A DNA stretch of 64,000 nt. Origin: an uncultured Planctomycetales bacterium. GTDB lineage: Bacteria; Omnitrophota; Gorgyraeia; Zapsychrales; JANLHA01. The notes beneath the pieces were generated by a model. The model was given only the letters and a program-made list of their open reading frames with translations. It searched no databases and was not told the DNA's origin. This document shows positions 3,839 to 42,891 of the stretch, piece after piece (position 1 is the stretch's first letter; every line of letters starts with the position of its first letter). The position numbers and the translations under genes were made by a program. Location of the stretch: positions 3,835 to 67,834 of the forward strand of contig CAYVEC010000008.1 of the NCBI GenBank assembly GCA_964450385.1. The letters are read 5' to 3'.

Positions 3839-3847
3839 ACCATCGCT

Positions 3848-5450: not shown

Positions 5451-5506
5451 TCCCCTACAGTGTGCCTGTACTCAATTCATTGTGTTTCAGCTACTAGGAT
5501 AAACAG

Positions 5507-10796: not shown

Positions 10797-10842
10797 TTCC
10801 CTGCTCGATCGTATACATGATGGTTAACCAGAAGGAGGTTTT

Positions 10843-11463
10843 ATGAAAAAACTCAACCCCATATGTATCGTTGCCTTGACGGTCGCGATGATCGTCAGCG
10901 CAACAACAGTGTGGGCCGCAGAGCAGGCGTTCCCGATTGCTGTCAGCATTCCGGCCGCCACCGCTGTGACCTTCACTGTCAGCAAAGTTACCGGGACAAC
11001 CTGGGCAACTAACAACTACAACCTGGAGTTCGGGCAGCTCGATTTCGAACCGGTGAATAAGATCTTTACTGCACCGTTTTATTTCGCGATCGATCTTGGT
11101 TCGAACGGAACAGGCGCCGGGGTGCCGGATGAGATCAAACTTACCTATAGTGAGTCATCCAATCCCAACAGCGTCGCGGGTACTGGCCGCCGAGGGCTCG
11201 GTTACAAAAGTGTCGTGACCGTTGCGAAGGCGATTGAAGACAGCGCGGACTCTGTGCTGCACAAGGTCCTGTTGCAAAAAGTCGGTTCCATTGACGCCTT
11301 GGATAAGACGTCATTCGTCGGCGGTTGGCCGCGTGTTTATGTCGGCATCTATGACGGCAACGCGAAAAACAGCAGCGGCGATGCAGATGAGGAGCTCTTT
11401 ACCCTCGAAGACGCGCCCGGTGATTATCTCGGCGTTTTAACGATTACAGCGATTGTGAACTAA
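10843..11463 (+). CDS. secreted ~200-aa protein, candidate major fibre/pilin-like subunit (SCPU/Csu-like)
   Basis: Strong SD (AGGAGG). Signal peptide ends VWA. Post-signal alternating segment IAVSIPAATAVTFTV. C-terminal GDYLGVLTITAIVN resembles the chaperone-usher pilin F-strand motif. Confidence 0.4.
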   Translation: MKKLNPICIVALTVAMIVSATTVWAAEQAFPIAVSIPAATAVTFTVSKVTGTTWATNNYNLEFGQLDFEPVNKIFTAPFYFAIDLGSNGTGAGVPDEIKLTYSESSNPNSVAGTGRRGLGYKSVVTVAKAIEDSADSVLHKVLLQKVGSIDALDKTSFVGGWPRVYVGIYDGNAKNSSGDADEELFTLEDAPGDYLGVLTITAIVN

Positions 11464-11476
11464 CATTAGGGAAAAA

Positions 11477-11524
11477 AGAGGCACCTGTTTGTGGACTGTG
11501 TACAGCACCGCGACAGGTGCCTCT
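11477..11524 (+). other. intercistronic stem-loop (12-bp perfect GC-rich stem, 24-nt loop) with no following U-tract
   Basis: AGAGGCACCTGT (11477-11488) pairs with ACAGGTGCCTCT (11513-11524). It lies immediately after the putative subunit gene. Confidence 0.5.
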
Positions 11525-11559
11525 TGAAACATGGTTCGAACACAACGAAAGAAGCTCCA

Positions 11560-12402
11560 ATGGCCTTAAAACGGATCGGATATTTGCTCGGATTCCTCGT
11601 GGTCTGGCAGTGCGCTCAGACAGGCCCGCTTTATGCACAGGTCTTGGTTCAAGAAGGCAAGATCAAAGAAGCCCTAATGCCCGGGCAAAAAAAGGCAGGG
11701 GTCATTACGATCCATAACACATCGAATGAGCCAATCGATATCCGGTCTTATTTTGAAGATTTTAAATATGAGGAGCCCTTTCGTGGGAAAAAAGAATTCC
11801 TTGCCGCCGGAAGCGCCCAAGACTCATGCAGCGCCTGGATCAAATTTTATCCTCAGAATTTTTCCCTGGCCCCGTTCGCAAAAGAGGAGATCAACTACAC
11901 GATCAGCTTTCCAGATGATGCTCAGGGCGGGTATTACTGTGTTCTCTTTTTTGAGAAGTCATTGGGGACGATCCGGCCAGCCGGCAATGATCCAGCGGAT
12001 GTATCTCAGCCCGGCGTCTCGGTGGTGGCTCGGGTCGGCACTCTTTTTTTTCTTGAGTCCTCAGCCCGAAAAAAAACAATCCAGGTGGATGACCTTAGAT
12101 TTGAGCAATCGACATTGACGGGCTCCGTTACAAACACCGGTGATGTCACGCTTGTCATTAAGCCGATCTATTATTTAATCAGCACGAATGGCGTTCCGAG
12201 TGACCGTGGAGAACGCGAGAAGATATACCTTCCGGCCGGAGAGACCACTAAATTTGATGTCCCGATGTCGGATCAATTAGCAGAGGGGCGGCACGATCTT
12301 GTGATCACCTTTGATCTCGAAGACGGGATTTCGCATGTCGTTGAAGGAAAGATTAACCGGTCACGTCAAGAAGGATTCTCAATAACGAATATTCGGCAAT
12401 AG
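11560..12402 (+). CDS. secreted two-domain beta-rich protein, candidate periplasmic chaperone-like component
   Basis: Signal peptide ALKRIGYLLGFLVVWQCAQTGPLYAQV. Beta-strand-like segments GVITIHNTSNEPIDIRSYF and VTLVIKPIYYLIS. The start may instead be upstream at 11491 in the same frame. Confidence 0.35.
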   Translation: MALKRIGYLLGFLVVWQCAQTGPLYAQVLVQEGKIKEALMPGQKKAGVITIHNTSNEPIDIRSYFEDFKYEEPFRGKKEFLAAGSAQDSCSAWIKFYPQNFSLAPFAKEEINYTISFPDDAQGGYYCVLFFEKSLGTIRPAGNDPADVSQPGVSVVARVGTLFFLESSARKKTIQVDDLRFEQSTLTGSVTNTGDVTLVIKPIYYLISTNGVPSDRGEREKIYLPAGETTKFDVPMSDQLAEGRHDLVITFDLEDGISHVVEGKINRSRQEGFSITNIRQ

Positions 12403-12439
12403 CTGGACCGGGAGTGATGGGCAACTACAACTGGAAACA

Positions 12440-15328
12440 ATGAACGCGCGATCAATTATTGTTATTGGAATCATGTGTCTTGTCGCCACTGTGAGTGATC
12501 TCCCGGGAGGCACGCAAGAGGCCTGTGCCCAGTACACGAATATCTTTCATTCGTATATGACCCAGGGGAAAGAGGCCCTCGAAGAAGGCCGCTACCAGGA
12601 TGCACTGCTCTTTTTTGAGACTGCGCAGATCGTTAGCCCCGGAGACGCTGAGCTCAATCAGTATCTAAATCTTGTCAAGCGTCACATTGAGGATCGGATT
12701 CAGGGCGCTCCGATCCAACCCGCAAAGAGTCGAAGCGTTCCCGCTGATGTCCCAGCTGCCACGTCGTATAAAGAAGCAGCCCGTGTTTCGGCCAGCGCGG
12801 ATCCCCGTCCGGCACTTGGGTCGAGACCGAAACCCGCGATCACGCGTGTGTCTCCTGAACCGGATGTGACAACACCTATCCTTGATCTGCCGCCGCAGGA
12901 TCAGACCCCGGTTGCCGCCACCCCGAATGTCGCGCTCCCATACCAAAAAAATTTTAAAACGATCGCTCTTGACCTCGACGCGACACTCTGGGCATCACAG
13001 CCCAATACCCTTCTTGAGATCCCGTTAAATACAAAAGTCCTTGTCCGGTCGACTGCGACCATTGAACGGTATCTGGTGATCATCCCGGACCAGATCGCGG
13101 TGGAACGGGTGAGCCATAGCGAGATTATCCTGACACCGCTCAAGCGCGGCCAGACATTTTTTCACCTCTGGGACAGCAATGACCAGCGCTGGACATTCAA
13201 TATCGCGAACGTCCTGCCGCTGTCCGAGCAGAACATCTTCGACGTTAGCGAACCTCAGCGCCAGACGTCCTTTGACAATTTCAAAATCACCTATGACACC
13301 TCCTGGAACTCGTTTTATACCGGGCCTAGTAAAAGCGATGTCGACAGGGACTCGATGCTGTTTCGAAATACATTCGGCATCTATGGGCCGACACCCTATG
13401 GCCGCGTTGACGGAAGCATCACGTATAGTCGAACCGATATCGAACCCACGAAGGCCAAGGATTATACGGCAGGGATCACCGAGGGATATATCGGCCCACT
13501 GAAGGATTTTTCGCTCAGGATCTTCGATGCGCAGAGGGAGCTCTCGCCGCTTACGTTGCCGGGCCAGGTCTTTCGCGGGGCCCTCTATGAAGATAGTTTC
13601 GGGGATGGCACGTTTGACCTGACCCTATTGCGCGGCCAGGCGCGTCTTACGTATGGCCCGATCGCCCCAGGGCTGAGTCTGAGCGATGACACCTATGTCG
13701 AGGGCGGACGAATTCAATATAATCTCCCGGAGAGCAAAGATCTCGTTGCGGTGAACTATGCACATTCTTGGGGCGACGATCGATCTAGCGAGGCCAAGGA
13801 CAAGGCCTATTCTGCGGAATACGAGAAACAACTGGGCGAGTATACCCGGTTTTTTTCTGAGGTCGCCCATGACGAGGATGAGACCGCGTATCGATTGCGA
13901 ACCAAATATCAAGAAGGCCGGGACCGTTTTGAGCTCCGTTTTCGTGATATCCCGGCGGAATACGGCACCGCCATGGGAACACCGATCAATCAAGGGGAAA
14001 TCGGCACCGAGATGTCGTGGGGCACGGATTGGCACGCCTTTCAACTCTCCTCATATTTAGATGTGTACCGTGACCACAGCCTGGAGAATCCGGAAGATCC
14101 CGATGCCTTGAACACCGACTTCTCATTGTCTGCCTATCGCCCTCTGCCGGGGAAAGCGGCATGGCGGACCGACGCCTATTTTTATCACACGCCCGGGCTT
14201 ATCTCTGATGAGATTGATTATCGATTGAGCTCAACCCTTTCAAAGAATTTCTCCATATTTGGGAAAAACCTGTATAACTATCTGACGGGCAGTGTCCATC
14301 AAAAACGTTCCGACTCCAATCCCCAGACGGATTATGACCGAAACAGTGTGACCCTGGGGATGAATTATCCGCTAACAAAGAAACTCCGTCTCTTCATGAA
14401 TTATGACCTCTACTGGATCACCGATCGGGGAGGGGACAATAGTGAGAGCCATCCTGAGGCCCTGACCACAAATCTGATCTACAGTCACTCGTTTAACGAG
14501 GAGTGGCGCCTCGAGTCGAGCATCTCGTATCGCGATGAGGAACGGACCGAAGGCAGCAAAACCTTTTTAGCCGGCGAGGACAGCCTGAGTACCGGTCTGA
14601 ATCTCTCCTATTTCCCGACACCTGACTTAAGCATCTATCTGGATGGCCGGGTGCGCGACGTTTGGACGGAAAAAAATACACAGGATGCTTATACTGAATG
14701 CGATGTCCGTTTTGGGGTCCGGTCAACCTGGGATACGGGACTGTCCTGGAATCCGCAGGGAATTGTAAATGGCTATGTCTTTAAGGACGTTAACATGAAC
14801 GGCCAGCGTGATGCAGACGAACCCGGCATCGGAGGCGTTACGGTCCGGATCGGTGAGACCTCGGCCTTGACAGACCGGACCGGATGGTATTATGCCGATG
14901 TGCGCGCCGCCTCGGTCTTGATCACCCCTGATGTCCAGACGATCCCAACGGGATATATCTTTAAAGAGACGAGCGGGGCGCGCTATACCATCGGTCATGG
15001 ATCCGCGATCACCCATGATATCGCCTTGACATCAAACTCAGGGATCTTCGGCGTGGCCTTCGTTGATGCGAATGGCAACGGCACACCCGAGGCGGATGAA
15101 CAAAAGCTCCGTTCGGTTCGCGTCCTGGTGAATCGTGAGTTTGAATACGTCACGGATTCTCGCGGCGCGTATTTTGTCACGGATCTGAAGGCAGGTCAGC
15201 ATGATCTTGCGATTGATTTAGGATCGATCCCGATGGAATTTCTTCCAACCATTCCGCTCACGGCAACCATCACGATCGATGAAGGTACAACCTACATCTT
15301 TAACATCCCTGTCCAGCCGAAGAAATAA
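12440..15328 (+). CDS. 962-aa outer-membrane protein: signal peptide, TPR-like region, Pro-rich linker, pilus-formation-N (T2SS/T3SS pil_N)-like domain, predicted beta-barrel, two C-terminal Cna-B/SdrD-B-like domains
   Basis: LDLDATLWASQPNTLLEIPLNTKVLVRS...VIIPDQIAVERVSHSEIILTPLKRGQTFFHLWD matches the CpaC/RcpA N-domain pattern. There are many amphipathic aromatic-ended strands (LFMNYDLYWITD, LNLSYFPTPDLSIYLDGRV). C-terminal NGYVFKDVNMNGQRDADEPGIGGVTVRI and VDANGNGTPEADEQKLRSVRVLV are Cna-B-like. Confidence 0.45.
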   Translation: MNARSIIVIGIMCLVATVSDLPGGTQEACAQYTNIFHSYMTQGKEALEEGRYQDALLFFETAQIVSPGDAELNQYLNLVKRHIEDRIQGAPIQPAKSRSVPADVPAATSYKEAARVSASADPRPALGSRPKPAITRVSPEPDVTTPILDLPPQDQTPVAATPNVALPYQKNFKTIALDLDATLWASQPNTLLEIPLNTKVLVRSTATIERYLVIIPDQIAVERVSHSEIILTPLKRGQTFFHLWDSNDQRWTFNIANVLPLSEQNIFDVSEPQRQTSFDNFKITYDTSWNSFYTGPSKSDVDRDSMLFRNTFGIYGPTPYGRVDGSITYSRTDIEPTKAKDYTAGITEGYIGPLKDFSLRIFDAQRELSPLTLPGQVFRGALYEDSFGDGTFDLTLLRGQARLTYGPIAPGLSLSDDTYVEGGRIQYNLPESKDLVAVNYAHSWGDDRSSEAKDKAYSAEYEKQLGEYTRFFSEVAHDEDETAYRLRTKYQEGRDRFELRFRDIPAEYGTAMGTPINQGEIGTEMSWGTDWHAFQLSSYLDVYRDHSLENPEDPDALNTDFSLSAYRPLPGKAAWRTDAYFYHTPGLISDEIDYRLSSTLSKNFSIFGKNLYNYLTGSVHQKRSDSNPQTDYDRNSVTLGMNYPLTKKLRLFMNYDLYWITDRGGDNSESHPEALTTNLIYSHSFNEEWRLESSISYRDEERTEGSKTFLAGEDSLSTGLNLSYFPTPDLSIYLDGRVRDVWTEKNTQDAYTECDVRFGVRSTWDTGLSWNPQGIVNGYVFKDVNMNGQRDADEPGIGGVTVRIGETSALTDRTGWYYADVRAASVLITPDVQTIPTGYIFKETSGARYTIGHGSAITHDIALTSNSGIFGVAFVDANGNGTPEADEQKLRSVRVLVNREFEYVTDSRGAYFVTDLKAGQHDLAIDLGSIPMEFLPTIPLTATITIDEGTTYIFNIPVQPKK

Positions 15329-23321: not shown

Positions 23322-23387
23322 AGTGAAGAAAATATTTAACGGAAACGCCATTTGACGGTACAATGAACGCAAAGGAGATGCGTATTC

Positions 23388-24455
23388 ATGATTAAGCCCG
23401 ACCAGTATTCAAAGGCGAAGATCCTCATCATCGATGACCAAAAGCTGCATCATCTTTACCTTGAAAAAATCCTTCACACGGCAGGGTTCCAAAGCATCCG
23501 ATGTCTCGCGGACCCGTTAAAGGCCCATGCCACGGTTCTTGAATTTAATCCCGACCTCATCGTCCTTGATATCCTCATGCCTCAGCTCGACGGGTTCCAG
23601 ATCATGGAGCAGCTCCATACTTTCCGTCAACGACACTATCTCCCGATCCTTGCAGTCTCAGCAGAGCAAAGTACCGACTTCCGGCTTAAGGCCCTGCGCG
23701 CCGGCGCCACGGATTTTCTCCATAAGCCCTTTGAGCATGACGAGATCATTTTTCGCATCAACAACATGTTAGAGATGCGGTTTCTCCACATGGCCCTCGA
23801 AAACCAAAACCACATCCTCGAAGATCGTGTGAACGAGCGAACGAAAGAATTAAAGAATTCACAGATCGAGATCATCCGCCGCCTCGCCCAGGCTGCTGAA
23901 TTCCGTGATAACGATACTGGGGCCCACATCATCCGCATGAGCCATTATTGCGCGGCCCTCGGACGGGCCATGGGCCTGAGCCCCGCGGATGTCGAACTCA
24001 TTCTCACAGCCAGCCCGCTCCACGATATCGGCAAGATCGGCATCCCGGACAGCATTCTCCTTAAACCAGGGAAATTGTCGCCCGAAGAATTCGAGATCAT
24101 GAAAACGCACACCACGATCGGCGCCCAGCTTTTAGCCAGCGCTAATTCCCCTGTCATGAAGATGGCCCAGGTCATCGCGCTCACCCATCATGAGCACTGG
24201 GACGGTTCCGGCTATCCCAGAGGTCTCAAAGGGGACCAGATCCCGCTCATCGGCCAGATCTGCAGTGTCTGCGATGTATTTGACGCCCTGATCTCTGAGC
24301 GGCCGTATAAACAGCCCTGGACACCCCAGCAGGCCGCACAAGAGATCATCAGTCAAAAAAACAAACAATTTAAGCCTGAATTGATCGATCAATTTGAATT
24401 GATCCTGCCCGAATTCATAAAAATCACCACGGAATGTCATAACCCCGGCGTTTAA
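23388..24455 (+). CDS. response regulator with HD-GYP c-di-GMP phosphodiesterase output domain
   Basis: REC (ILIIDDQ...LIVLDILMPQLDG). HD-GYP motifs HDIGKIGIPD and HHEHWDGSGYP. Confidence 0.85.
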   Translation: MIKPDQYSKAKILIIDDQKLHHLYLEKILHTAGFQSIRCLADPLKAHATVLEFNPDLIVLDILMPQLDGFQIMEQLHTFRQRHYLPILAVSAEQSTDFRLKALRAGATDFLHKPFEHDEIIFRINNMLEMRFLHMALENQNHILEDRVNERTKELKNSQIEIIRRLAQAAEFRDNDTGAHIIRMSHYCAALGRAMGLSPADVELILTASPLHDIGKIGIPDSILLKPGKLSPEEFEIMKTHTTIGAQLLASANSPVMKMAQVIALTHHEHWDGSGYPRGLKGDQIPLIGQICSVCDVFDALISERPYKQPWTPQQAAQEIISQKNKQFKPELIDQFELILPEFIKITTECHNPGV

Positions 24456-24490
24456 AAAAACATCTCGGGACTTTTTTTTAGATAAAATCA

Positions 24491-24520
24491 TGTTATAGTA
24501 TTTTATACTATTTTATACTA
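24491..24520. repeat. three tandem ~10-bp units (TGTTATAGTA, then TTTTATACTA twice) immediately upstream of the hybrid kinase gene
   Basis: Perfect 2x decamer at 24501-24520 preceded by one degenerate copy. Each contains a TATACT -10-like hexamer. Confidence 0.5.
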
Positions 24521-24534
24521 CGTGATCACTGTCG

Positions 24535-26817
24535 ATGCTTATGAACAAAACGACCGATACATCAACCTTTAAATCCTCAGTCCCGGTGCTTGATCTCAGC
24601 GAAGGGACCGAGATGCTCACCGATTTCTCACGGGAGGCCCAGCGGCATCTCATCTCAGCACGCAATTCCCTTCTTGTCCTTGAGTCCGTTCCCACCGACA
24701 AAGAGGCGATCGAAAATGTCTTTAAAACGTTCCATACGATCAGCGGGCTTGCGGACTTTCTTCAACTTCAGGATATTTTTACGCTGTCCCATGAGACGGA
24801 GACGCTGCTCAATTTCATCCGGCGCGGCACTCACGCACTCAGCCCCGAGACAGCGGCCACGGTTACCGAATCTGTTAAAGCCCTTCAGCACCTCCTTGAA
24901 CTCCTCGATGAACAGATCTCGAACAAAGGGGTCCTTCCAGGCGAGTATTTCGATATCACGGACCTTATCACACGCATCAACCGCCTGTCTCAACAGCCCG
25001 CGGGAGCCCCAACAGGCGTGGCACATCAGGGTGCCCCAGCGAAAGCGGAGGCCTCGACCATTTCAGAAGACCCGGACACCCCTACCTATGTGCTCATCCG
25101 TGACAAGTTAGAGCAGACCGGGATGGCGAGTTTCTTTCTTGAAAAAAACACCGTGAAGCACCTCATCGGCGAATTTGAGGTCCTGGAGCATCAGCTCAAG
25201 GAGGCACAGACCAAAATCCAAGAGCGGCAGCAGGAGCTCATCCATGAACGCGAGCTCGCCTTGAAATTGACCAAAAAGGCCCAGGACGATGCCCGTTCCA
25301 AAAGCGAATATCTGGCCAACATGTCGCACGAGATCCGAACGCTGATCAACGCGATCCTTGGCTTTACCGATCTCATCAAACTCGAGTTGCCGGATAACAG
25401 TAAACCGCGCGAGCACCTCAACACTATCATCGTTAGCGGCAAAATGCTCCTCGAGATCGTGAATAACATCCTCGATTTCTCCAAGGTCGAGGCCGGCAAA
25501 CTCAAACTCGAAAACATTCCCTTCAACATCCGCGATATCGCCGAAGAGATCTTCAAGATCATCCGGACCCGTCTTGATCGGAAGCCCGTAAACCTCTTTC
25601 TTGACATTGAGCCGAAGGTCCCGCTTGATCTCATGGGAGACCCGACCCGTCTCAAACAGATCTTCATGAACCTGATCGATAACGCCATCAAATTCACCGA
25701 ACGAGGCGAGATCGGGCTTCGGATCCATTATGACCAGCGCAAGGATGACCGCCATATTTTGCGCCTGAGCGTGACCGATACCGGGATCGGTATCCCGGAG
25801 GATCGGCGAGATCAGGTCTTTGACTCATTTACTCAAGCAGACGCCTCGACCACACGACTCTACGGCGGGACCGGACTCGGGCTCTCGCTGTGCCGCGCCT
25901 TTGTTGAGGCCATGGGAGGCAAAATTTGGATCGAATCGACCTTGGGGAAGGGTAGCCAATTTATTTTCACAATCGGTTTTAAGACCGCATCGGAGCGTTC
26001 GACCTCCCCCGACTACCCCGAGATCAACGGGATGAAGGCGATTATTGTTTCGCCTTTTGAGACAACCATCCGCGGCGCGCAGCGTCTTTTCGCCGATGCC
26101 TCGATGCAGCTCATGGCCGTCTGCCAAAATCCAAAACAGGTCTGTGAATACCTCAATTCCTCCGCCGCCTCGCCGGATTTTATCCTCATTGACATGCTAC
26201 TGCCGCCAGGATCAGCGTATGAACTGGCCCAACGCCTTCGCGGCCAGCCCGCGACACAAAAGATCCACCTGATTGCGATCTCCTCGGACGTCAAACTGGC
26301 CGGGGATGAGACATTTAAGAATTCTGTTTTTGACGCGTTCCTTGCCTGCCCGATCATGCTTCAGGAGATGGGGCCGATCCTTCAATCCATGAGCGGAAAA
26401 AAATCGCAGCCCACAAATGGCGAAGGTGATGCCGCCGCTTCGGATGCCGTCTTTAAAGGGGCGCGGATCCTCGTTGCCGAAGACAGTATCCCCAACCAGG
26501 AACTGCTCAAGATCCACTTTGAATCGCTCGGATGCATCTGTGACTATGCCTCGAACGGCCATGAGGCCATTGAATTCATCAAAAAAAATTCCTACCAACT
26601 CTGTTTCATGGATCTCCAAATGCCGGTCATGGGTGGGCTCGAGGCGGCCCAGATCATCCGGCAGGAGCTCCATTCAACCGTTCCGATCGTGGCCCTGACG
26701 GCTGCTGAGATCAATGAGGAGCGGGATAAATGTTTGACCATCGGGATGTCGGACTATCTTCCGAAACCCTTTGACCTGGACCAACTCAAAGATAAAATCA
26801 AAAAGTTCCTAACATAA
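24535..26817 (+). CDS. cytoplasmic hybrid histidine kinase: N-terminal Hpt (CheA-P1-like), coiled coil, HisKA, HATPase_c, two C-terminal receivers
   Basis: Hpt: NVFKTFHTISGLADFL...LSHETETLL. H-box: ANMSHEIRTLINAI. ATPase: DTGIGIPE...GGTGLGLS. REC2: ILVAEDSIPNQ...FMDLQMPVMGG. Confidence 0.8.
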   Translation: MLMNKTTDTSTFKSSVPVLDLSEGTEMLTDFSREAQRHLISARNSLLVLESVPTDKEAIENVFKTFHTISGLADFLQLQDIFTLSHETETLLNFIRRGTHALSPETAATVTESVKALQHLLELLDEQISNKGVLPGEYFDITDLITRINRLSQQPAGAPTGVAHQGAPAKAEASTISEDPDTPTYVLIRDKLEQTGMASFFLEKNTVKHLIGEFEVLEHQLKEAQTKIQERQQELIHERELALKLTKKAQDDARSKSEYLANMSHEIRTLINAILGFTDLIKLELPDNSKPREHLNTIIVSGKMLLEIVNNILDFSKVEAGKLKLENIPFNIRDIAEEIFKIIRTRLDRKPVNLFLDIEPKVPLDLMGDPTRLKQIFMNLIDNAIKFTERGEIGLRIHYDQRKDDRHILRLSVTDTGIGIPEDRRDQVFDSFTQADASTTRLYGGTGLGLSLCRAFVEAMGGKIWIESTLGKGSQFIFTIGFKTASERSTSPDYPEINGMKAIIVSPFETTIRGAQRLFADASMQLMAVCQNPKQVCEYLNSSAASPDFILIDMLLPPGSAYELAQRLRGQPATQKIHLIAISSDVKLAGDETFKNSVFDAFLACPIMLQEMGPILQSMSGKKSQPTNGEGDAAASDAVFKGARILVAEDSIPNQELLKIHFESLGCICDYASNGHEAIEFIKKNSYQLCFMDLQMPVMGGLEAAQIIRQELHSTVPIVALTAAEINEERDKCLTIGMSDYLPKPFDLDQLKDKIKKFLT

Positions 26818-27236
26818 TGGAGTCGGCGATGAGCGGGGAAGAGCTGAAAAAAATCTTGGTTGTGGACGATTCGGACCTGGAAAGAGAACTCCTCATTGAG
26901 GTGCTCAAGAGCGCCGGGGTCATCAATGAGTTCTTACAGGCCAAAACCGGTGAAGACGCGATCCAATTCCTGGGCACGCGATACAAGGAGATCGGGATCG
27001 TCCTCCTCGACTGGCAGATGCCGCAAATGTCAGGGATGGAATTCATGGAAGCCGTGGTGAAGGTTCCGACCGTTGCCAAGATGCCGATCATCATGGTCAC
27101 GGCCTCAGGAACGGATGAGAACAAGAAAAAGGCCCGGTCGGTCAACCCGAACCTAATCGGCTATGTTGTCAAACCTTATACGCCCGAGACGATCCTCGAC
27201 GTGATTTATCCTTTTGTTAAGGTCAAACCCCGCTAA
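26817..27236 (+). CDS. CheY-like single-domain response regulator
   Basis: ILVVDDSDLE...IVLLDWQMPQMSG...VKPY. Confidence 0.8.
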   Translation: MESAMSGEELKKILVVDDSDLERELLIEVLKSAGVINEFLQAKTGEDAIQFLGTRYKEIGIVLLDWQMPQMSGMEFMEAVVKVPTVAKMPIIMVTASGTDENKKKARSVNPNLIGYVVKPYTPETILDVIYPFVKVKPR

Positions 27237-27256
27237 TATGGACAAAGGAGACCGAC

Positions 27257-27841
27257 ATGGTTTTTGGACTCGGTGGCAATAAAGAATTAGAGCAATACGC
27301 TGAGGTTTTAAAACGCAGTGTTATCGCGCTTTTTAAAGAGCGAGGCAACGTGGTTTTTACCAAACCTCCGCAGCTGACCCGGCGGCCGATCATTGAATAC
27401 GAAGGCAAGATCCGCGCCGACGGCATGGACAAATACAACAATGAAGTCGCCTATGTCTCAGCGGTCAATTTTTATTCGGATGTCGCCGCCCTTGAGAAGA
27501 AAAAGCCCTTGGGCGTCCTTGTCGTCTATGTTCAATTCGAGTTCCTCCCGCGCCTGATGAAACTCCTGCAGTATCCGCCGATCGATGATGAAAAGGAACA
27601 GGCCTTGCTCGATTCAATCGGGACGCTCTGCAACATCGTCTCCGGCCGCTTTAAATCCGAGATCAAGGCCGCAGGATACAAGGACCTGGAGATGTCGCAT
27701 TTCATCAATTACCGCAATAACGCGGTCGTGGGGGTCAGTTACAATCCCAAAGAGAGTGAGTATTATGAAATGGTCTGTGAGATCGAGGGGAAGCGCCGTT
27801 TAGCGATCGATCTTACAATGAGCCCGATCCCCAAACGCTAA
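27257..27841 (+). CDS. hypothetical protein, possible CheX/CheC-family CheY-P phosphatase
   Basis: DSIGTLCNIVSGRF resembles the CheC/CheX ExxN(I)xxG motif (ELGNIGAG). Context is between a CheY-like and an Hpt gene. Confidence 0.4.
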   Translation: MVFGLGGNKELEQYAEVLKRSVIALFKERGNVVFTKPPQLTRRPIIEYEGKIRADGMDKYNNEVAYVSAVNFYSDVAALEKKKPLGVLVVYVQFEFLPRLMKLLQYPPIDDEKEQALLDSIGTLCNIVSGRFKSEIKAAGYKDLEMSHFINYRNNAVVGVSYNPKESEYYEMVCEIEGKRRLAIDLTMSPIPKR

Positions 27842-27862
27842 ATGAATGGATGAGACCTGACG

Positions 27863-28204
27863 ATGCCGCTTGATGTTTCACATGCCTGTGCCCAATTAAA
27901 GATCCCCCAGGAGATCTATCTTCGGATCCTCGTGCGGGCCGTAGAGCATACCGCAGTTGATTTGAGTGAACTCGAGCAGGCCGTGGTCCATGATAATATC
28001 GCGACGGTCCAGGCGGTCTCTCATCGACTGAAAGGTGATTTCGCGAATCTCCGTGTTGATGATATTTCCGCGACCGCCAAGGCCCTCAATGATTCATCAA
28101 AAGGCGGAACGTATAACAAAATCCAGGCGGGAGAGCTCGTTCAGACCCTGATCGGTCAGATCAAGGGCCTCCAACAGCAATTAACGACCCCACCGGGATC
28201 GTGA
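27863..28204 (+). CDS. Hpt histidine phosphotransfer protein
   Basis: VSHRLKGDFANL (HxxKG phosphotransfer motif). Confidence 0.7.
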   Translation: MPLDVSHACAQLKIPQEIYLRILVRAVEHTAVDLSELEQAVVHDNIATVQAVSHRLKGDFANLRVDDISATAKALNDSSKGGTYNKIQAGELVQTLIGQIKGLQQQLTTPPGS

Positions 28205-28205
28205 G

Positions 28206-28598
28206 GTGACCATGAGCCGTATCCTGATCGTTGAAGACAGCCGGAACAATCAAGACCTCCTTCAGGAGATCCTGCCGAAGACCATGACCCTGCACTTTGC
28301 CGAGAACGGCAAGGACGCGGTCCATGCGTACAACCAATCGCTCGCGTCATCACAGAAGTTCGATCTCATTCTCCTTGATATCGGCCTGCCGCACATGAGC
28401 GGCATGGAGATCCTGACCAAGATCCGCTTAAGCGAAAAAGCCGCCGGCATCCCGTGGGGAGATGGGATCCCGATCATCATGATCACCGCGCATAAGCGCC
28501 GCTTTTTAGAAGCCTATGATAAAGGATGCACCAACTATATCCTTAAACCTATCAATCCAGACTCCCTGCGGGCCCTTGTTCAAAAATATACGAAATAA
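28206..28598 (+). CDS. single-domain response regulator
   Basis: ILIVEDSRNN...LILLDIGLPHMSG...LKP. Confidence 0.75.
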   Translation: MTMSRILIVEDSRNNQDLLQEILPKTMTLHFAENGKDAVHAYNQSLASSQKFDLILLDIGLPHMSGMEILTKIRLSEKAAGIPWGDGIPIIMITAHKRRFLEAYDKGCTNYILKPINPDSLRALVQKYTK

Positions 28599-28705
28599 AC
28601 CCGACGTGTGTTACTTTCGAATAGAAATTCATCTTATATTTGTGTTTATTCCAGCCTTCTTATATAATACAACCTCATCTAATACTTAGTAGAGGAGAAA
28701 AAACC

Positions 28706-32946: not shown

Positions 32947-33267
32947 ATGGCCACAAAAAAAGCACCCGACCGCCGTCAATATCCCCGGATCCATCGGATC
33001 CTGAGCATTCAATTCCGGCTCAAAAAGACCCGGCAGGCGGGGGCTGACACCGCGACCTGGCATCAGGCCACGACTCATGATATGAGCGTCGGAGGGATCT
33101 CGTTCGTCAGCCGGACCCCCTACATGCTCGGAGATATCCTGGAACTTCATGTCGTCATGTCCGGCGTCCTTGATGTCCTCTGCTCTGACGGGAAAGTCGT
33201 CCGCGTCGAAGACAAAAAACACGGCCTGTTCCTGACAGCCGTTGAACTCACGCGCCCCAAGGCATAA
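32947..33267 (+). CDS. stand-alone PilZ-domain (c-di-GMP-binding) protein
   Basis: RQYPR (RxxxR) and DMSVGGISF (DxSxGG) motifs. 106 aa. Confidence 0.7.
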   Translation: MATKKAPDRRQYPRIHRILSIQFRLKKTRQAGADTATWHQATTHDMSVGGISFVSRTPYMLGDILELHVVMSGVLDVLCSDGKVVRVEDKKHGLFLTAVELTRPKA

Positions 33268-33402: not shown

Positions 33403-33837
33403 TTGACCATCATGCAGGACCAATCTGTGATAGAACATGAAGGGGTTGTCACCGGACGCACATTAACGGGGCTCCTAACCGTTGAGATTACCTCAAGCCC
33501 TGCCTGCGGGTCGTGTGAGGCCCGGCAGCACTGCCTGGCGAGTGAGAACATCACACGGGTCATCGAGGTCGCGGATCCAGGCGGCTGTCATCGACCCGGT
33601 GATCATGTGACGATCGTATTGACAGAGACTTTGGCGTGGCAAGCGGCGATTATGGCGTATATTTTCCCCTTCATGATCATTGTTGCGACCTTGATTGTGA
33701 TGACGGTCTGGCGCCTGTCGGAACTGATCGCGGGATTAGGGGCGTTAGCGGGGTTAGCGGCTTATTACATGCTGTTAATGTGTTTTGAAAAAAAGTTAAA
33801 ACGCACGTTCGTGTGCCATTTAAAGGAAGCAGCGTGA
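33403..33837 (+). CDS. rseC: RseC/MucC-family protein (SoxR-reducing system component, commonly precedes rnf)
   Basis: CGSCEARQHC Cys motif plus two C-terminal TM helices. Confidence 0.7.
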   Translation: MTIMQDQSVIEHEGVVTGRTLTGLLTVEITSSPACGSCEARQHCLASENITRVIEVADPGGCHRPGDHVTIVLTETLAWQAAIMAYIFPFMIIVATLIVMTVWRLSELIAGLGALAGLAAYYMLLMCFEKKLKRTFVCHLKEAA

Positions 33838-33841
33838 CATC

Positions 33842-34699
33842 ATGAGCATGATCGTTGTGTTCACAATTCTGGTCCTGTGCGGCATCGGTATCATCTCGGC
33901 GCTTGTACTGTACGTGGTCGCCAAGAAATTCCAGCTTGCGGAGGATCCCCGGATCGACACGGTGGTGAGCCTCCTCCCGGGGGCCAACTGCGGCGGATGC
34001 GGTTTTCCGGGATGCCAGGCCTTTGCCAAGGCCTGTGTCGAGGCGGAAACACTCGACGGCCTGTTCTGCACACCGGGCGGCAACGACGGGATGGCGGCGG
34101 TTGCCAAATTCTTAGGCAAAACCCCGGTCACGAAGGACCCGATGATCGCTGTGCTCCGCTGTAACGGGAGTTTTCAAAACCGCGTCCGACGCACGAACTA
34201 CGAGGGCGAGCGAACATGCGCGATCGAGCACCTCACCTGCGGGGGCGAAACCGACTGCGTTTACGGCTGTCTCGGCCAAGGCGACTGCATGCGCGCCTGC
34301 GTCTTTGGCGCCATCACGATCGATCCCGAGACAGGGCTCCCGGTCATCGATGATGACCGTTGTGTTGCCTGCGGGGCCTGCGTGACGGCCTGTCCCAAGG
34401 GGCTCATCGAACTTCGAAAAAAAGGACCCAAAAACCGGCGTGTCTTTGTCTGCTGCTGGAACAAAGACAAGGGGCCGACTGCCCGTAAGGCCTGCACCGC
34501 CGCGTGTATCGGCTGCATGAAATGTGTTAAGGAATGCCCCTTTGAGGCCATCACGGTCACAGATTGTTTGGCGTATATTGATCCGGAAAAATGCCGGCTT
34601 TGCCGAAAATGCGTTCTCGCCTGTCCGACGGGCGCGATCCATGAAGTCAATTTTCCGGCGCGGCCTGCCCAACCCTCAACCCCGGTGACCGGCATATGA
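33842..34699 (+). CDS. rnfB: Rnf electron-transport complex subunit B (polyferredoxin)
   Basis: N-terminal TM anchor, GANCGGCGFPGCQAFA, and multiple CxxCxxCxxxCP ferredoxin motifs. Confidence 0.85.
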   Translation: MSMIVVFTILVLCGIGIISALVLYVVAKKFQLAEDPRIDTVVSLLPGANCGGCGFPGCQAFAKACVEAETLDGLFCTPGGNDGMAAVAKFLGKTPVTKDPMIAVLRCNGSFQNRVRRTNYEGERTCAIEHLTCGGETDCVYGCLGQGDCMRACVFGAITIDPETGLPVIDDDRCVACGACVTACPKGLIELRKKGPKNRRVFVCCWNKDKGPTARKACTAACIGCMKCVKECPFEAITVTDCLAYIDPEKCRLCRKCVLACPTGAIHEVNFPARPAQPSTPVTGI

Positions 34700-36051
34700 C
34701 ACGACATAAGACATTTCCACAAGGCGGGATCCATCCCCATGATCACAAAATCACGGCCGGCCAGCCGCTCGTGACCCTGCAGCTTCCCAAAAGTGTGGCG
34801 CTCATTCTGACCCAACACATCGGCGCGGCCGCGGTCCCGATCGTCAAGGTCGGTGATCCGGTCAAGACCGGCCAGCTCCTCGCCGAGGCCAAAGGCATGA
34901 TTTCAGCCCATGTCCACGCGACGATCAGTGGGCGCGTCGCGCGGATCGAGGATGTCATGGACCAAACCGGGATCAAACGCCCGGCCGTCATCATTGAATC
35001 CGGGAATGAGGGGAGAGATGATTGGGCCGAGGGGATCGATCATTCGCCGGATATTGGACGAATGCCCGATCTTTCACCGGATGAGATCCGGGCCCGGGTC
35101 CGCGCGGCCGGGATCATCGGTTTGGGCGGTGCGGGCTTCCCTGCCCATGTCAAACTGAGCGTGCCCCCAGGGAAAAAGGCGGAATTTCTGCTGATCAATG
35201 GCGTCGAATGTGAACCCTATCTGACCTCCGACCATTGCCTCATGATGAGCCGGGCCCAGGAGATCCTGATCGGGATCCGTCTCTCACTGCATGCCCTCGG
35301 CCTGACCCGGGCCATGATCGGCATCGAAGAGAATAAGCCCGACGCGATCGCGCTTTTTGAATCGCTCCTTGGCCGCGACCAAACGGTCCGCGTTGTGCCG
35401 CTCAAGGTCTGTTACCCGCAGGGAGGGGAGCGCCAGCTCGTGAAGGCCCTGATCAATCGTGAGATCCCTCCGGCACCCAAAGGTCTGCCGATCGATGTCG
35501 GAGCGGTTGTACTCAACGTTGCGTCATGCTTTGCGATTTATGAAGCGGTTGTCAAAAATAAACCTTTGATTGATCGTATCGTGACCGTGACCGGGGACGG
35601 GCTTGCCTCACCCGGGAATTTCCTCGTCCGGATCGGGACCCCGATCCAGGCGCTCATCGAGGCGGCCGGTGGCCTGCCCGAGAATGCCGGAAAGATCATC
35701 AGCGGCGGCCCGATGATGGGAAAAGCGGTCTCGGTTCTTTCGGCCCCTGTGACCAAAACAACCGGCGGACTCGTGGTCTGTTCGGACTCCTGGTCCCATC
35801 GTTCGATCTCTCGCGATTGCATCCGCTGTGGAAACTGCGTTACGGCCTGTCCCCTCGGACTCGAACCGTACCTTCTCATGACCGTGACACAAAAAGACCT
35901 CTATGACCGTGCCGAACAGGAAAAGATCACCAACTGCTGCGAATGCGCCTGCTGCTGCTATGTCTGCCCGTCTCACCGGCCGTTATTAGACTATATTCGG
36001 CTCGGCAAGGGCCGCGTATTACAACGCATGAGGGAGAGAACAAAAAAATGA
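34696..36051 (+). CDS. rnfC: Rnf subunit C
   Basis: GLGGAGFPAHVK (NADH/FMN-binding signature) and two 4Fe-4S motifs (CIRCGNCVTACP, CCECACCCYVCP). Confidence 0.85.
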   Translation: MTRHKTFPQGGIHPHDHKITAGQPLVTLQLPKSVALILTQHIGAAAVPIVKVGDPVKTGQLLAEAKGMISAHVHATISGRVARIEDVMDQTGIKRPAVIIESGNEGRDDWAEGIDHSPDIGRMPDLSPDEIRARVRAAGIIGLGGAGFPAHVKLSVPPGKKAEFLLINGVECEPYLTSDHCLMMSRAQEILIGIRLSLHALGLTRAMIGIEENKPDAIALFESLLGRDQTVRVVPLKVCYPQGGERQLVKALINREIPPAPKGLPIDVGAVVLNVASCFAIYEAVVKNKPLIDRIVTVTGDGLASPGNFLVRIGTPIQALIEAAGGLPENAGKIISGGPMMGKAVSVLSAPVTKTTGGLVVCSDSWSHRSISRDCIRCGNCVTACPLGLEPYLLMTVTQKDLYDRAEQEKITNCCECACCCYVCPSHRPLLDYIRLGKGRVLQRMRERTKK

Positions 36052-37022
36052 GCCCGACACGCTTAACCGTTGCCTTGTCCCCGCATATCCACAGCGGGCT
36101 AAAAATCCCGCATCTGATGTACGGGGTCATCTTTGCCCTGATGCCGGCCTTTGCGGTATCACTTTATGTCTTTGGGCTTCCGGCCCTGATCATCACCCTG
36201 ATCGCGGTCGCAAGCTGCATCCTCTGTGAATACATCCTTCAGCGCTGGGTCCTCCGGATCCCTGTCTCGATCCATGATGGATCCGCGGCTCTGACCGGGA
36301 TCCTGCTCGCCTTTAATCTGCCGAGCAATCTCCCTTGGTGGATGGTGATCATCGGCAGTGTCGTCGCGATCGGGCTCGCCAAAATGACCTTTGGCGGACT
36401 CGGCAATAATCCGTTCAATCCGGCCCTGGTCGGCCGCGTCTTTCTCCTGATCTCGTTTCCCGCCGCCATGACGACCTGGCCAAAACCCTTTGACACCGAC
36501 GGCATCACTGCGGCCACCCCGCTCATGATCCTAAAAGAAGGGATCAAGGCCGGAACACCAGCCAGCGATCTCATGGCAACCCTGCCGAGCACGTGGCAGA
36601 TGTTCCTCGGACAGATGGGGGGATCGATCGGGGAGGTCTCTGTAGCGGCCCTGCTCCTGGGCGGCCTGTTCCTATTGGGGACACAGATCATATCCTGGCA
36701 CATCCCGGTCTCGATCCTAGGGACCGCGGCCGTGTTTTCAGGAATCTTCTGGCTCATTGATCCAGCGCACTTTGCCCATCCGATGTTCCATCTGATGAGC
36801 GGCGGCCTGATGCTCGGCGCGATTTTTATGGCGACTGATTACGTCTCGTCGCCGATGACTGGGAAGGGCATGATTATCTACGGGGTCATGATCGGGCTCC
36901 TCACCATGATCATCCGCATGTTCGGTGCGTATCCGGAAGGGATGTCGTTCGCGATCCTGATCATGAACGCCTTTGTCCCGCTCATCAACCGCTACTGCAA
37001 ACCACACCGTTTCGGAGAATAA
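36048..37022 (+). CDS. rnfD: Rnf subunit D
   Basis: ATGA overlap with rnfC. Polytopic NqrB/RnfD-like. The in-frame upstream extension to 35943 is judged spurious. Confidence 0.85.
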   Translation: MSPTRLTVALSPHIHSGLKIPHLMYGVIFALMPAFAVSLYVFGLPALIITLIAVASCILCEYILQRWVLRIPVSIHDGSAALTGILLAFNLPSNLPWWMVIIGSVVAIGLAKMTFGGLGNNPFNPALVGRVFLLISFPAAMTTWPKPFDTDGITAATPLMILKEGIKAGTPASDLMATLPSTWQMFLGQMGGSIGEVSVAALLLGGLFLLGTQIISWHIPVSILGTAAVFSGIFWLIDPAHFAHPMFHLMSGGLMLGAIFMATDYVSSPMTGKGMIIYGVMIGLLTMIIRMFGAYPEGMSFAILIMNAFVPLINRYCKPHRFGE

Positions 37023-37037
37023 CGAGGCACGTCTCTT

Positions 37038-37616
37038 ATGAGCAAAACTGAATCCTCATTTACGAATATGCTGGTCACACTCTTTGTCGTCTCGTTATTA
37101 TCATCCGCGAGCGTCGGAATTGTCTATGAACTCACGCGCGGCCCGATCGCTGAGGCGGCCGAGGCCAAAAAGGTTGACGCAATCCGGGCCGTAGTTCCGG
37201 AGTTCGATAACAACCCGGTCGCCGAAGAATATACCCTTTCCTACAATGAGGAGAAGTTAAAGGCTTATCCCGCCACGCGGAATGGCATCCGTGTCGGCAC
37301 CGCGGTTGAGGCCTCGACCTCGCTCGGATTTGGCGGCACGATCCTCCTCATGATCGGCCTCCTGCCGGACGGGACGATCTCCGACATCTCCGTTCTTGAG
37401 CATAAAGAAACCCCCGGCCTCGGTGACAAGATCGAACCCGGAAAATCCGGTTTCATTAAACAATTTACCGGCCAACACCCGTCGCGGTTTACCTTAAAGG
37501 TCAAAAAAGATGGGGGGAGTGTTGACGCGATCACCGCGGCAACGATCAGTTCCCGCGCCTTCTGCGATGGGGTCGCTCGCGCGGTCGCGGCCTACGCACA
37601 GGAGAAACAACCATGA
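37038..37616 (+). CDS. rnfG: Rnf subunit G (FMN-binding)
   Basis: GGSVDAITAATISSRA flavinylation motif. Confidence 0.85.
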   Translation: MSKTESSFTNMLVTLFVVSLLSSASVGIVYELTRGPIAEAAEAKKVDAIRAVVPEFDNNPVAEEYTLSYNEEKLKAYPATRNGIRVGTAVEASTSLGFGGTILLMIGLLPDGTISDISVLEHKETPGLGDKIEPGKSGFIKQFTGQHPSRFTLKVKKDGGSVDAITAATISSRAFCDGVARAVAAYAQEKQP

Positions 37617-38200
37617 ACGCATGGCAGAATTTCAGTAAAGGCCTCCTTAAAGAAAATCCGGTGCTCATCCTGCTCCTAGGTTTCTGCCCGACCCTCGGCG
37701 TATCCACCTCGGCCCTGAACGGCATCGGCATGGGACTCGCCACGACCTTTGTCTTGATCATGTCAAACATCGCCATCTCGCTCGTCAAAGACCTGATCCC
37801 GGATAAGGTGCGCATCCCGTCGTATATCGTCATCATCGCCTCATTTGTCACGGTTGTTGATCTGATCATGGCTGCCTATGTGCCGGCGCTCCATGCGAAG
37901 CTTGGGCTCTTCATCCCGCTCATCGTGGTGAACTGTATCATCCTGGGCCGGGCCGAGGCCTTTGCGGCCAAAAATGGCCTGATCCCGTCCATGATCGACG
38001 GTCTGGGCATGGGCTGCGGATTCACCCTGGCCCTGACCTTTATCGGCAGTGTCCGTGAGATCTTAGGCAGCGGGTCGATTTTTCAATATAAATTCATCGC
38101 TGGAGACGGGATCCTGATCTTTATCCTGGCCCCCGGGGCCTTTATCGTCATGAGTTATTTGATCGCCGTTGTACGAAAAATAAACGCGGCCCAACACTAG
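37613..38200 (+). CDS. rnfE: Rnf subunit E
   Basis: NqrD/RnfE-like polytopic membrane protein (LLLGFCPTLGVSTSA). Confidence 0.85.
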   Translation: MNAWQNFSKGLLKENPVLILLLGFCPTLGVSTSALNGIGMGLATTFVLIMSNIAISLVKDLIPDKVRIPSYIVIIASFVTVVDLIMAAYVPALHAKLGLFIPLIVVNCIILGRAEAFAAKNGLIPSMIDGLGMGCGFTLALTFIGSVREILGSGSIFQYKFIAGDGILIFILAPGAFIVMSYLIAVVRKINAAQH

Positions 38201-38218
38201 TTAACCAGCGGGGCATCT

Positions 38219-38797
38219 ATGACCCATTATCTCCTGATCATCATCTCAGCTGTTTTTGTCAATAACATTGTCCTGACCCGGTTTTTGGGCATCTGCCCGT
38301 TTCTCGGTGTCTCGAATAAATTCTCCACGGCCGTTGGCATGGGCGGAGGGGTCCTGTTCGTCATGACCCTCTCGACGCTCGTGACCTATCTCATCAATGC
38401 CTATGTCCTGGTGCCTCTCCAGATCGGGTTCATGCAGACGATCACCTATATCCTTGTCATCGCGGCCCTGGTCCAGATGGTCGAGATCATCCTTAAAAAG
38501 ATCAGCCCGGCGCTCTATCAGGCGCTCGGTGTGTATCTGCCGCTCATCACCACGAACTGCACGATCCTGGGCGTCGCGATCCTCGTCGTTCAAAATAAAT
38601 TCTCTCTGCTCGAAAGCGTGGTCTTTGCCATGGCCAACGCCTCTGGATTTACGCTCGCGATCGTGCTCTTTTCAAGTATCCGCGAACAGCTCGAGCTCTC
38701 GAACGTGCCCAAGGCCATGCGCGGGGTGCCGATCGCGCTCTTGACGGCCGGGCTCCTATCCCTGGCCTTTATGGGTTTTTCGGGGATCGTCAAATAG
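38219..38797 (+). CDS. rnfA: Rnf subunit A
   Basis: NqrE/RnfA-like ([21 protein letters not shown]). Confidence 0.85.
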
Positions 38798-42767: not shown

Positions 42768-42891
42768 AGCAGCCCTTTCCGGTTCTGTCCTATCTTAAAA
42801 CCCGTCCTTGGCTTTGGCAAGGAGGGAATGAAAAATTAAAAATATTTTCCGCCGCCATGTGCCGATGCTATACTGCCTGCAAAGGACTTTC

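Follow-up and report, generated by a model that had tools for sequence, protein, structure and literature searches.

A putative receptor-less phosphorelay related to chemosensory gene clusters and linked to an HD-GYP regulator gene in Candidatus Omnitrophota

The six-gene block and its products

The subject of this work is a block of six consecutive genes at positions 23388-28598 of a 64,000-nucleotide stretch of DNA (contig CAYVEC010000008.1, hereafter the window). A preliminary description based on the bare sequence had read the block as a Che-like cytoplasmic phosphorelay linked to turnover of cyclic di-GMP (c-di-GMP). Pfam domain annotation bore out the six same-strand open reading frames (ORFs), with the domains that had been assigned to them and at the positions given. 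The genes encode the following proteins, in which REC denotes a receiver domain and Hpt a histidine phosphotransfer domain.

23388..24455, + strand: REC-HD-GYP response regulator of 355 aa with RpfG-type architecture, a putative c-di-GMP phosphodiesterase (Pfam Response_reg E 2e-23, HD_5 E 3.6e-33)
24535..26817, + strand: soluble hybrid histidine kinase of 760 aa (Pfam Hpt with E 7e-9, HisKA, HATPase_c and two Response_reg stretches)
26817..27236, + strand: REC3, a single-domain CheY-like receiver of 139 aa (Pfam Response_reg E 9e-20)
27257..27841, + strand: CheX-fold protein of 194 aa (sub-threshold Pfam CheX match, AlphaFold2 model, Foldseek)
27863..28204, + strand: free Hpt protein of 113 aa with His54 in SHRLKGD (Pfam Hpt 29.3 bits, cut-off 24.6)
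28206..28598, + strand: REC4, a single-domain receiver of 130 aa (Pfam Response_reg E 8e-21)

From the HD-GYP gene through REC4 the intergenic spacers are 79, -1, 20, 21 and 1 nt, the start codon of REC3 overlapping the stop codon of the kinase (TAATG). In line with a cytoplasmic location, the mean Kyte-Doolittle hydropathy stayed below 1.6 over every 19 consecutive residues in all six proteins, so that no transmembrane segment was found. The kinase was likewise without any sensor domain in Pfam at E <= 0.01. About 55 ORFs of the window were scanned for further signalling domains. Genes for methyl-accepting chemotaxis proteins (MCP), CheW, CheB and CheR had been said to be missing, and the MCPsignal, CheW, CheB and CheR domains were indeed absent from these ORFs, as were GGDEF and EAL domains. 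MCP, CheW, CheB or CheR genes alongside the kinase were not found in the orthologous loci of other genomes either.

The kinase starts with a P1-type Hpt domain (residues 6-141, His67), which is followed by a poorly conserved linker containing a coiled coil, a HisKA domain (residues 256-321, His264) and the HATPase domain (residues 368-481; HATPase_c, 112 bits). The C-terminal part consists of a degenerate receiver, REC1 (about residues 500-625), and a canonical one, REC2 (residues 645-756, Asp693). Across 18 orthologues there is little or no variation at His67, at His264 and in the REC2 motifs, and the phosphorylation motifs MSHEIRT (H-box), FMDLQMP (REC2) and FHTI(K/S)G (P1) are likewise invariant or almost so. 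REC1 is the least conserved part of the kinase; it has no acidic pair, and its Lys position is variable and occupied by Cys in the window.

The N-terminal part of the kinase, used as query in a homologue search, returned fragments only. The best matches of this part in the PDB were the CheA P1 domains 2ld6 and 1tqg (E 5e-6), with the phosphorylated His aligned. Moreover, residues 6-141 align without gaps to residues 1-136, the P1 domain, of a true CheA encoded in a complete chemosensory cluster (locus L033), with 50% identity over 136 aa. The description of the N-terminal Hpt as CheA-like therefore held. It also held that the kinase is non-canonical as a CheA: there is a HisKA domain with a conserved His, and neither an H-kinase_dim (P3) nor a CheW-like (P5) domain is present. 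The core of the kinase, comprising the dimerization and histidine phosphotransfer (DHp) domain, the catalytic ATP-binding (CA) domain, REC1 and REC2, aligns end to end with Caulobacter ShkA (PDB 6qrj, E 1.5e-60). Judged by these alignments, the kinase is a chimera in which a CheA-type P1 domain is fused to an ordinary HisKA/HATPase core followed by a degenerate and a canonical receiver.

The residues expected for phosphotransfer are conserved throughout the block. The acidic pair, the phospho-acceptor Asp, the Thr/Ser and the Lys are retained in the HD-GYP receiver, REC2, REC3 and REC4 (17-26 orthologues). In REC4 these are a D/E-D pair, Asp58, Thr and Lys, and the receiver of the HD-GYP protein keeps IDDQK, LD(I/L)xMP, LxxS and KP(F/Y) in 17 orthologues with one or two exceptions. 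The free Hpt protein has an HxxKG motif that is conserved in 26 sequences. The output domain of the HD-GYP protein (HD_5, 115 bits, cut-off 27.2) carries the motifs PLHDIGKIG and THHExWDGxGYP, which are also conserved in the 17 orthologues. An H-box His, an ATP-binding domain, a receiver Asp and an Hpt His are thus all present and conserved, which supports the proposal of a cytoplasmic multi-step phosphorelay.

Conservation, chemosensory ancestry and the CheX-fold protein

Homologues of the 194-aa protein were found almost exclusively in metagenome-assembled genomes of Candidatus Omnitrophota, some of which carry the depositor label 'uncultured Planctomycetales'. The window's own copy, looked up as an exact sequence, matched no contig on record. 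The six-gene block occurs, uninterrupted, in about 25 Candidatus Omnitrophota loci, and because the same block recurs this often without interruption its arrangement is, on comparative grounds, not due to chance. The surroundings are conserved as well. Across the phylum the order is aldo-keto reductase (AKR), SPL-like, HAD, NAD kinase, MutY, SurE, the module, citrate synthase, M17 peptidase, fumarase, PilZ and RseC/Rnf. Insertions into the flanks occur in some genomes: locus L001 has NfeD and Band7 genes before fumarase, and locus L002 has CysN and PAPS-reductase genes before SurE and hexapeptide transferase genes after REC4. The interior of the module is free of insertions in every locus. That insertions hit the flanks and never the module is the main evidence that the six genes would form a functional unit and are not just old neighbours.

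REC3 is the most conserved gene of the block, with 72-85% identity and 44% of the columns invariant in 23 sequences. Citrate synthase, by comparison, shows 64-80% identity, and REC3 equals or exceeds it in most loci. The block is among the best-conserved signalling loci of the Omnitrophota, a largely uncultured phylum, which suggests a core physiological role. The Hpt content varies. Most relatives (about 15) have a second Hpt gene between the first one and REC4, examples being L001 10970-11314, L002 10926-11291 and L004 11049-11393. The window and its closest relatives (L008-L011, L022, L023) have a single Hpt gene, the 1-nt spacer and no remnant of a second copy.

The origin of the block was examined by BLAST comparison of the window proteins with Che clusters, which gave specific one-to-one best matches. 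Full-motif relatives of the CheX-like protein (P0234, P0239, P0240) sit in complete chemosensory clusters (L032, L033, L034) with the gene order MCP, CheW, CheA, CheD, CheR, CheB, CheX-like, REC, CheX, Hpt, REC, REC-HisKA-HATPase, REC and a second CheA. REC3 matched the REC beside the CheX-like gene (48-51% identity), the CheX-like protein its Che-cluster counterpart (32-34%), the free Hpt the Che-cluster Hpt (33-36%) and REC4 the REC beside that Hpt (45-48%). Orthologues aside, these four proteins thus have their best matches in consecutive genes of MCP-CheW-CheA-CheD-CheR-CheB clusters. Together with the P1 homology of the kinase, the contiguous matches speak for the Che-like character of the relay. 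On these comparisons, the most fitting description of the module is that of a Che sub-block derivative without receptors, in which a CheA P1 domain became fused to a non-CheA kinase and a REC-HD-GYP gene was added. The term Che-like is right as a statement of ancestry, whereas membership of the Che pathway proper fails because there is no P3 or P5 domain, no CheW and no MCP. As a separate observation, L032 contains a PilZ gene (5116-5505) between cheA and cheR of its true Che cluster, which hints at a link to c-di-GMP that this Che lineage already had; the product of the gene has no detectable similarity to the PilZ protein of the window described below.

The product of the gene at 27257 had been called CheX/CheC-like on account of the string LCNIVSG, which is present at residues 124-130. 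The preliminary description had named the fold of this protein beforehand as one of two points on which its reading should be judged, the other being separate transcription of the genes. The CheX-like protein scored only 18.5 bits against Pfam PF13690, below the cut-off of 27, and had no NCBIfam match. A profile search of PDB sequences with an alignment of the family put designed armadillo-repeat artefacts on top, CheX reaching only E 0.17, and for this reason the assignment was made by fold comparison. An AlphaFold2 model based on 40 homologues had a mean predicted local distance difference test score (pLDDT) of 90.4 and a predicted template modelling (TM) score of 0.87. Foldseek ranked CheX highest, then CheC, FliY and the middle domain of FliM, with probability 1.0 and E values from 6e-9 to 1e-4. 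The targets 1squ, 3hm4, 1xko and 3hzh (CheX), 1xkr (CheC) and 4hyn (FliY) lie between E 6e-9 and 1e-5, with target-normalised TM-scores of up to 0.72. The CheX/CheC fold was confirmed in this way.

The active site is another matter. The family motif D/S-x3-E-x2-N-x22-P is matched only in part by the CheX-like protein. Its active-site helix reads DSIGT123LCN126IVSG, in which DSIGTLCN aligns with SAIGELGN of Thermotoga maritima CheX. Thr123 thus takes the place of the catalytic Glu, Asn126 is retained, and Ser147 and His148 occupy the position of the Pro. This register was taken from an hhalign comparison with T. maritima CheX that is itself non-significant (probability 1.3%) and agrees with the region of the Pfam match. 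Thr123 and Asn126 are invariant in the 40 homologues, and the motif helix, equivalent to the CheY-binding catalytic helix of CheX, is the most conserved stretch of the protein. A profile search of 1.84 billion representative proteins yielded 194 relatives. Among 110 full-length representatives of the wider family, 26 have Glu, Asn and Pro, and 19, including the window clade, have Thr, Ala or Ser together with Asn; the rest are otherwise degenerate. At the Glu position the window clade has Thr, and sister clades have Ala or Ser. One relative bears the unconfirmed label Heimdallarchaeota, on a contig of 2.5 kb.

The claim of CheX/CheC likeness thus stands for the fold, but with the motif altered and the Pro absent a CheX phosphatase is not established. 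We read the pattern as that of a protein that has probably retained receiver binding and in which catalysis is altered or lost. L030 has, at 451-1438, a divergent copy made up solely of a receiver with 52% identity to REC3 and a CheX-like protein with 39% identity. The context is unrelated, with a LAB_N gene on one side and a DsbA-like thioredoxin gene on the other. This copy suggests that the REC/CheX-like pair is the minimal unit.

Transcription units and the proposed phosphoryl flow

The block and its borders contain the following candidate regulatory elements.

23336..23364, + strand: sigma-70-like promoter match TTAACG-17-TACAAT upstream of the REC-HD-GYP gene (consensus scan, 9/12 matches; weak alone)
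24444..24479, + strand: terminator-like element after the HD-GYP gene, a 5-bp hairpin at 24444-24469 followed by U8 at 24472-24479 (RNA fold)
24491..24499, + strand: extended -10 element TGTTATAGT, 36 nt upstream of the kinase start codon (alignment of orthologous spacers)
24500..24519, + strand: perfect tandem direct repeat, two copies of ATTTTATACT, between the extended -10 element and the kinase start (read from the sequence)
28640..28668, + strand: promoter-like TTGTGT-17-TATAAT for citrate synthase, at the downstream end of the putative relay operon (read from the sequence)

The genes from the kinase to REC4 very probably form one five-gene operon with its own promoter, since their junctions are tight (-1, 20, 21 and 1 nt), a generic terminator scan gave no + strand terminator-like site within the block past the kinase start, and a conserved extended -10 element precedes the kinase. 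This element, in the form TGnTAnAnT about 30-45 nt before the kinase start, was found in 12 of the 13 orthologous loci with a spacer of at least 65 nt. The ATTTTATACT repeat next to it was not conserved among relatives in the spacer alignment. The hairpin and U8 on the HD-GYP side are a weak element that the generic scan did not call, and the corresponding T8 run is kept in L010, L012 and L015. In L004, L011, L021 and L023 the HD-GYP and kinase genes abut or overlap (from 7 nt apart to an 11-nt overlap). The portrayal of the six genes as a single module is therefore correct for the five kinase-to-REC4 genes, which are operon-like, but less so for the HD-GYP gene, which is probably transcribed apart in the window. 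At the downstream end, citrate synthase probably starts at ATG 28706, preceded by a GAGGAG ribosome-binding site, giving a protein of 429 aa. The ORF opened at TTG 28640 would encode 451 aa, compared with 430-434 aa in relatives. The stretch after the TTG holds the promoter-like site and the GAGGAG, and 429 aa is close to the relatives' length, which favours the later start.

The interpretation that we lean towards, with modest confidence, is that a branched multi-step phosphorelay in the cytoplasm, which is conserved across Candidatus Omnitrophota and derives from a Che-cluster sub-block, switches c-di-GMP hydrolysis by the HD-GYP protein. In this relay the kinase would autophosphorylate on His264, and Asp693 of REC2 would receive the phosphoryl group. 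The group would then move on to His67 of the kinase's own P1 domain, to His54 of the free Hpt protein, or to both. P1 would serve REC3 and the free Hpt would serve REC4, a pairing suggested by the co-inheritance of each pair from the Che cluster. By analogy with RpfC-RpfG, P1 or Hpt would also phosphorylate the receiver of the HD-GYP protein and so switch c-di-GMP hydrolysis. The CheX-like protein would dock on REC3 via its conserved active-site helix, and the isolated pair in L030 supports this partnership. As the kinase is without a sensor domain, candidates for the input are the degenerate receiver REC1 or a partner protein. Elsewhere in the window, directly upstream of two aconitase-family genes (44606-48742), a gene at 42859-44523 encodes a kinase with a 4HB_MCP-like four-helix bundle and HAMP, HisKA and HATPase domains, and no response regulator gene adjoins it. 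It is conceivable that this kinase provides a membrane input for the sensor-less relay, though nothing links the two.

Several points weigh against a phosphorelay that controls the HD-GYP protein. We infer the wiring from co-inheritance and adjacency, and that the relay sets c-di-GMP levels we only infer. In the window the HD-GYP gene probably forms a separate transcript, because the hairpin and U8 and then the conserved extended -10 element lie between it and the kinase gene; in some relatives the two genes are probably co-transcribed. With this terminator-like element and a separate promoter, coupling of the HD-GYP gene to the kinase operon is not guaranteed. The Che clusters L032-L034 contain no HD-GYP gene, which makes the HD-GYP link, as far as these relatives tell, an Omnitrophota-specific addition. 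By analogy with CheA, P1 might be phosphorylated directly by the ATP-binding domain and not via REC2. There is no diguanylate cyclase within the window. Finally, HD-GYP enzymes can act on other cyclic dinucleotides.

These points lend themselves to a different interpretation, in which the locus holds two independent units. The five-gene Che-derived relay would then act through protein-protein contacts of its receivers, for example on pili, cell division or attachment, while the HD-GYP protein would be fed by another kinase and the relay would not set c-di-GMP. Besides the hairpin and the extended -10 element between the two genes and the homologous Che-cluster sub-blocks that do without an HD-GYP gene, this alternative can call on the synteny of the whole 20-kb region across the phylum, which makes adjacency alone weak evidence, and on REC3, and not the HD-GYP protein, being the most conserved component. 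We nevertheless consider it unlikely. The HD-GYP gene lies directly upstream of the kinase gene in every orthologous locus that extends that far, it touches or overlaps it in the four loci mentioned above, and the insertions that break the synteny never fall between the two. Furthermore, a kinase with two His donors and single-domain receivers alone would have no enzymatic or DNA-binding output. A variant that keeps the HD-GYP protein in the circuit assumes a dual-donor kinase, carrying a CheA P1 domain and a classical DHp His in a single chain, with two insulated branches. P1 would phosphorylate REC3, read by a non-catalytic Thr-variant CheX-fold effector, and the DHp His would act through REC2 and Hpt on REC4 and the HD-GYP protein; the receptor-less chemotaxis core would then be a phylum-wide, possibly essential controller of c-di-GMP that responds to the internal state. 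We regard this scheme as improbable.

The end-to-end alignment of the kinase core with ShkA and the free Hpt that follows, like ShpA in Caulobacter, raise the question of a feedback of the ShkA type. REC1 would auto-inhibit the kinase, c-di-GMP binding to REC1 would activate it, and the HD-GYP protein would be switched on in response, resulting in c-di-GMP homeostasis. ShkA itself is a sensor-less cytosolic hybrid kinase that is activated by c-di-GMP binding to its degenerate Rec1 domain (PMC6969517). The ligand residues of ShkA reported there are changed in the window kinase (R324 to K587, Y338 to F602, R344 to M608, S347 to E611 and Q351 to P614), and the DDR tether in the linker reads DAA. 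At the column equivalent to Y338 the orthologues have F, S, L, Y, I or M, in keeping with the low conservation of REC1. Activation of the ShkA type is thus not supported despite the matching architecture, and we hold such feedback to be very improbable. The function of the CheX-like protein is more evenly balanced. It is possible, though we tend to the opposite view, that it is a fully active CheX-type phosphatase despite the change of Glu to Thr, ending the signal by dephosphorylating REC3 and possibly REC4, with REC3 as a phosphate sink as in chemotaxis systems with multiple CheY proteins. The CheX fold, the invariant catalytic Asn126 in the most conserved helix and the full E-x2-N family members that adjoin the orthologous REC in real Che clusters are consistent with such activity. 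On the other side, of the three motif positions the Glu and the Pro have been lost, and the presence of Thr, or of Ala or Ser in sister representatives, at the Glu position indicates that an acidic side chain is not required there. In CheC and CheX both the Glu and the Asn are needed for full activity. Given the replaced Glu, the lost Pro and the invariant Asn, it is slightly more likely that the protein is a slow phosphatase or a non-catalytic partner or effector of phosphorylated REC3.

Genomic surroundings and relation to known systems

The preliminary description had taken a free-standing PilZ gene downstream as a further hint of c-di-GMP control. The gene is real:

32947..33267, + strand: free-standing PilZ protein of 106 aa (Pfam PilZ 39.2 bits, cut-off 22.5, E 1e-9)

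Its product has intact RxxxR (RRQYPR) and DxSxxG (DMSVGG) motifs, the c-di-GMP-binding motifs. It lies 4.35 kb downstream of the block, and three housekeeping genes always intervene. The PilZ gene is kept after fumarase in many relatives and is missing at that place in L001. While the gene and its motifs hold up, the argument drawn from them is weak, since synteny across the phylum extends over the entire stretch from AKR to Rnf and since PilZ is absent after fumarase in L001.

The relay is surrounded, at window positions 28640-48742, by tricarboxylic acid cycle genes (citrate synthase, fumarase and the two aconitase-family genes) and a complete Rnf cluster (33403-38797), in an arrangement conserved across Omnitrophota. 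That the relay senses the metabolic or redox state is pure speculation.

A second signalling cluster is present on the + strand at 1467-5450. It comprises a gene for a protein of 271 aa that has a receiver at its N-terminus, three ORFs of 185, 156 and 135 aa, and genes for a REC-HisKA-HATPase kinase of 416 aa and a 131-aa receiver. Aligned over more than 80% of its length, the 416-aa kinase shares about 27% identity with the REC-HisKA-HATPase genes of L032-L034, a resemblance that may be only generic kinase similarity. The three ORFs (2279-3773) were considered as a hidden CheX or Hpt and rejected, having no Pfam match at E <= 1 and no BLAST match to Che-cluster genes. Four + strand ORFs at 9417-15328 may represent a surface or secretion locus. 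Three of them (459, 206 and 303 aa) are without a Pfam match, and the fourth (962 aa) has weak SdrD_B, SlipAM and pilus-N-terminal matches. The window further contains a cyclic nucleotide monophosphate (cNMP)-binding domain fused to a patatin-like phospholipase (53854-55968, 704 aa) and, on the opposite strand, the rpoN (sigma-54) gene (57719-59137, - strand).

Among known systems, RpfC-RpfG of Xanthomonas diffusible signal factor (DSF) signalling is similar in that a hybrid kinase with receiver and Hpt domains feeds a c-di-GMP-degrading REC-HD-GYP protein, the HD-GYP motifs being intact here. RpfC is a membrane sensor with a C-terminal Hpt domain, whereas the window kinase is soluble and sensor-less and carries a CheA-P1-type Hpt at its N-terminus. 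The window also adds two single-domain receivers, a free Hpt protein and a CheX-fold protein, and its HD-GYP gene may be a separate transcript. The ShkA-ShpA-TacA pathway of Caulobacter crescentus shares with the block a cytosolic, sensor-less kinase of DHp-CA-pseudoREC-REC architecture and the free Hpt that follows it. An N-terminal P1 is missing from ShkA, however, and the output of the pathway is a sigma-54 activator instead of an HD-GYP protein.

The CheA-CheY-CheX core of Thermotoga and Borrelia has the P1-type Hpt, the CheY-like single-domain receiver and the CheX fold in common with the block. In P1 not only the His is aligned with that of CheA but also the Glu three residues past the second conserved His. 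The window kinase differs by a HisKA domain with its own His in place of the His-less P3 and by having no P5/CheW domain. The CheX motif has Thr for Glu and no Pro, and there is no MCP or CheW gene in the 64 kb. The Che clusters L032-L034 resemble the block in their consecutive CheX-like, REC, CheX, Hpt and REC genes and in a CheA P1 that is 50% identical to the N-terminus of the window kinase. They are, in contrast, complete with MCP, CheW, CheA, CheD, CheR and CheB, have no HD-GYP gene and encode CheX-like proteins in which the E-x2-N-x21-P motif is fully preserved. The order of the CheX-like and REC genes is the reverse of that in the block.

In the H-NOX/HnoK and NosP/NahK nitric-oxide networks of Shewanella, Vibrio and Pseudomonas one kinase branches to several receivers, including a REC-HD-GYP protein, and the best NCBIfam match of the window HD-GYP protein was the NosR family NF053512 (E 1e-43). 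With 149.7 bits this match falls far short of the family cut-off of 400, and genes for an H-NOX or NosP sensor are absent from the vicinity, for which reasons a NosR/HnoD-type nitric-oxide network was rejected.

Every domain type in the block and the general logic of the relay are already known. Practical impact is limited by this familiarity of the domain types and by hosts that are not tractable. A search of the literature for CheX with HD-GYP and Hpt, for c-di-GMP, two-component or chemotaxis systems in Omnitrophota and for hybrid kinases with an N-terminal Hpt found no description of this cluster. The combination of a P1-HisKA chimeric kinase, a Thr-variant CheX-fold protein and an HD-GYP regulator is found in none of RpfC-RpfG, ShkA-ShpA and CheA-CheY-CheX. 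If the proposed relay is real, the CheX-fold family would offer a natural series (E-N-P, T-N, A-N) for probing the contribution of the catalytic Glu. The block itself would show how a chemosensory pathway can lose its receptors and, joined through P1 to an ordinary two-component kinase, come to control a second messenger.

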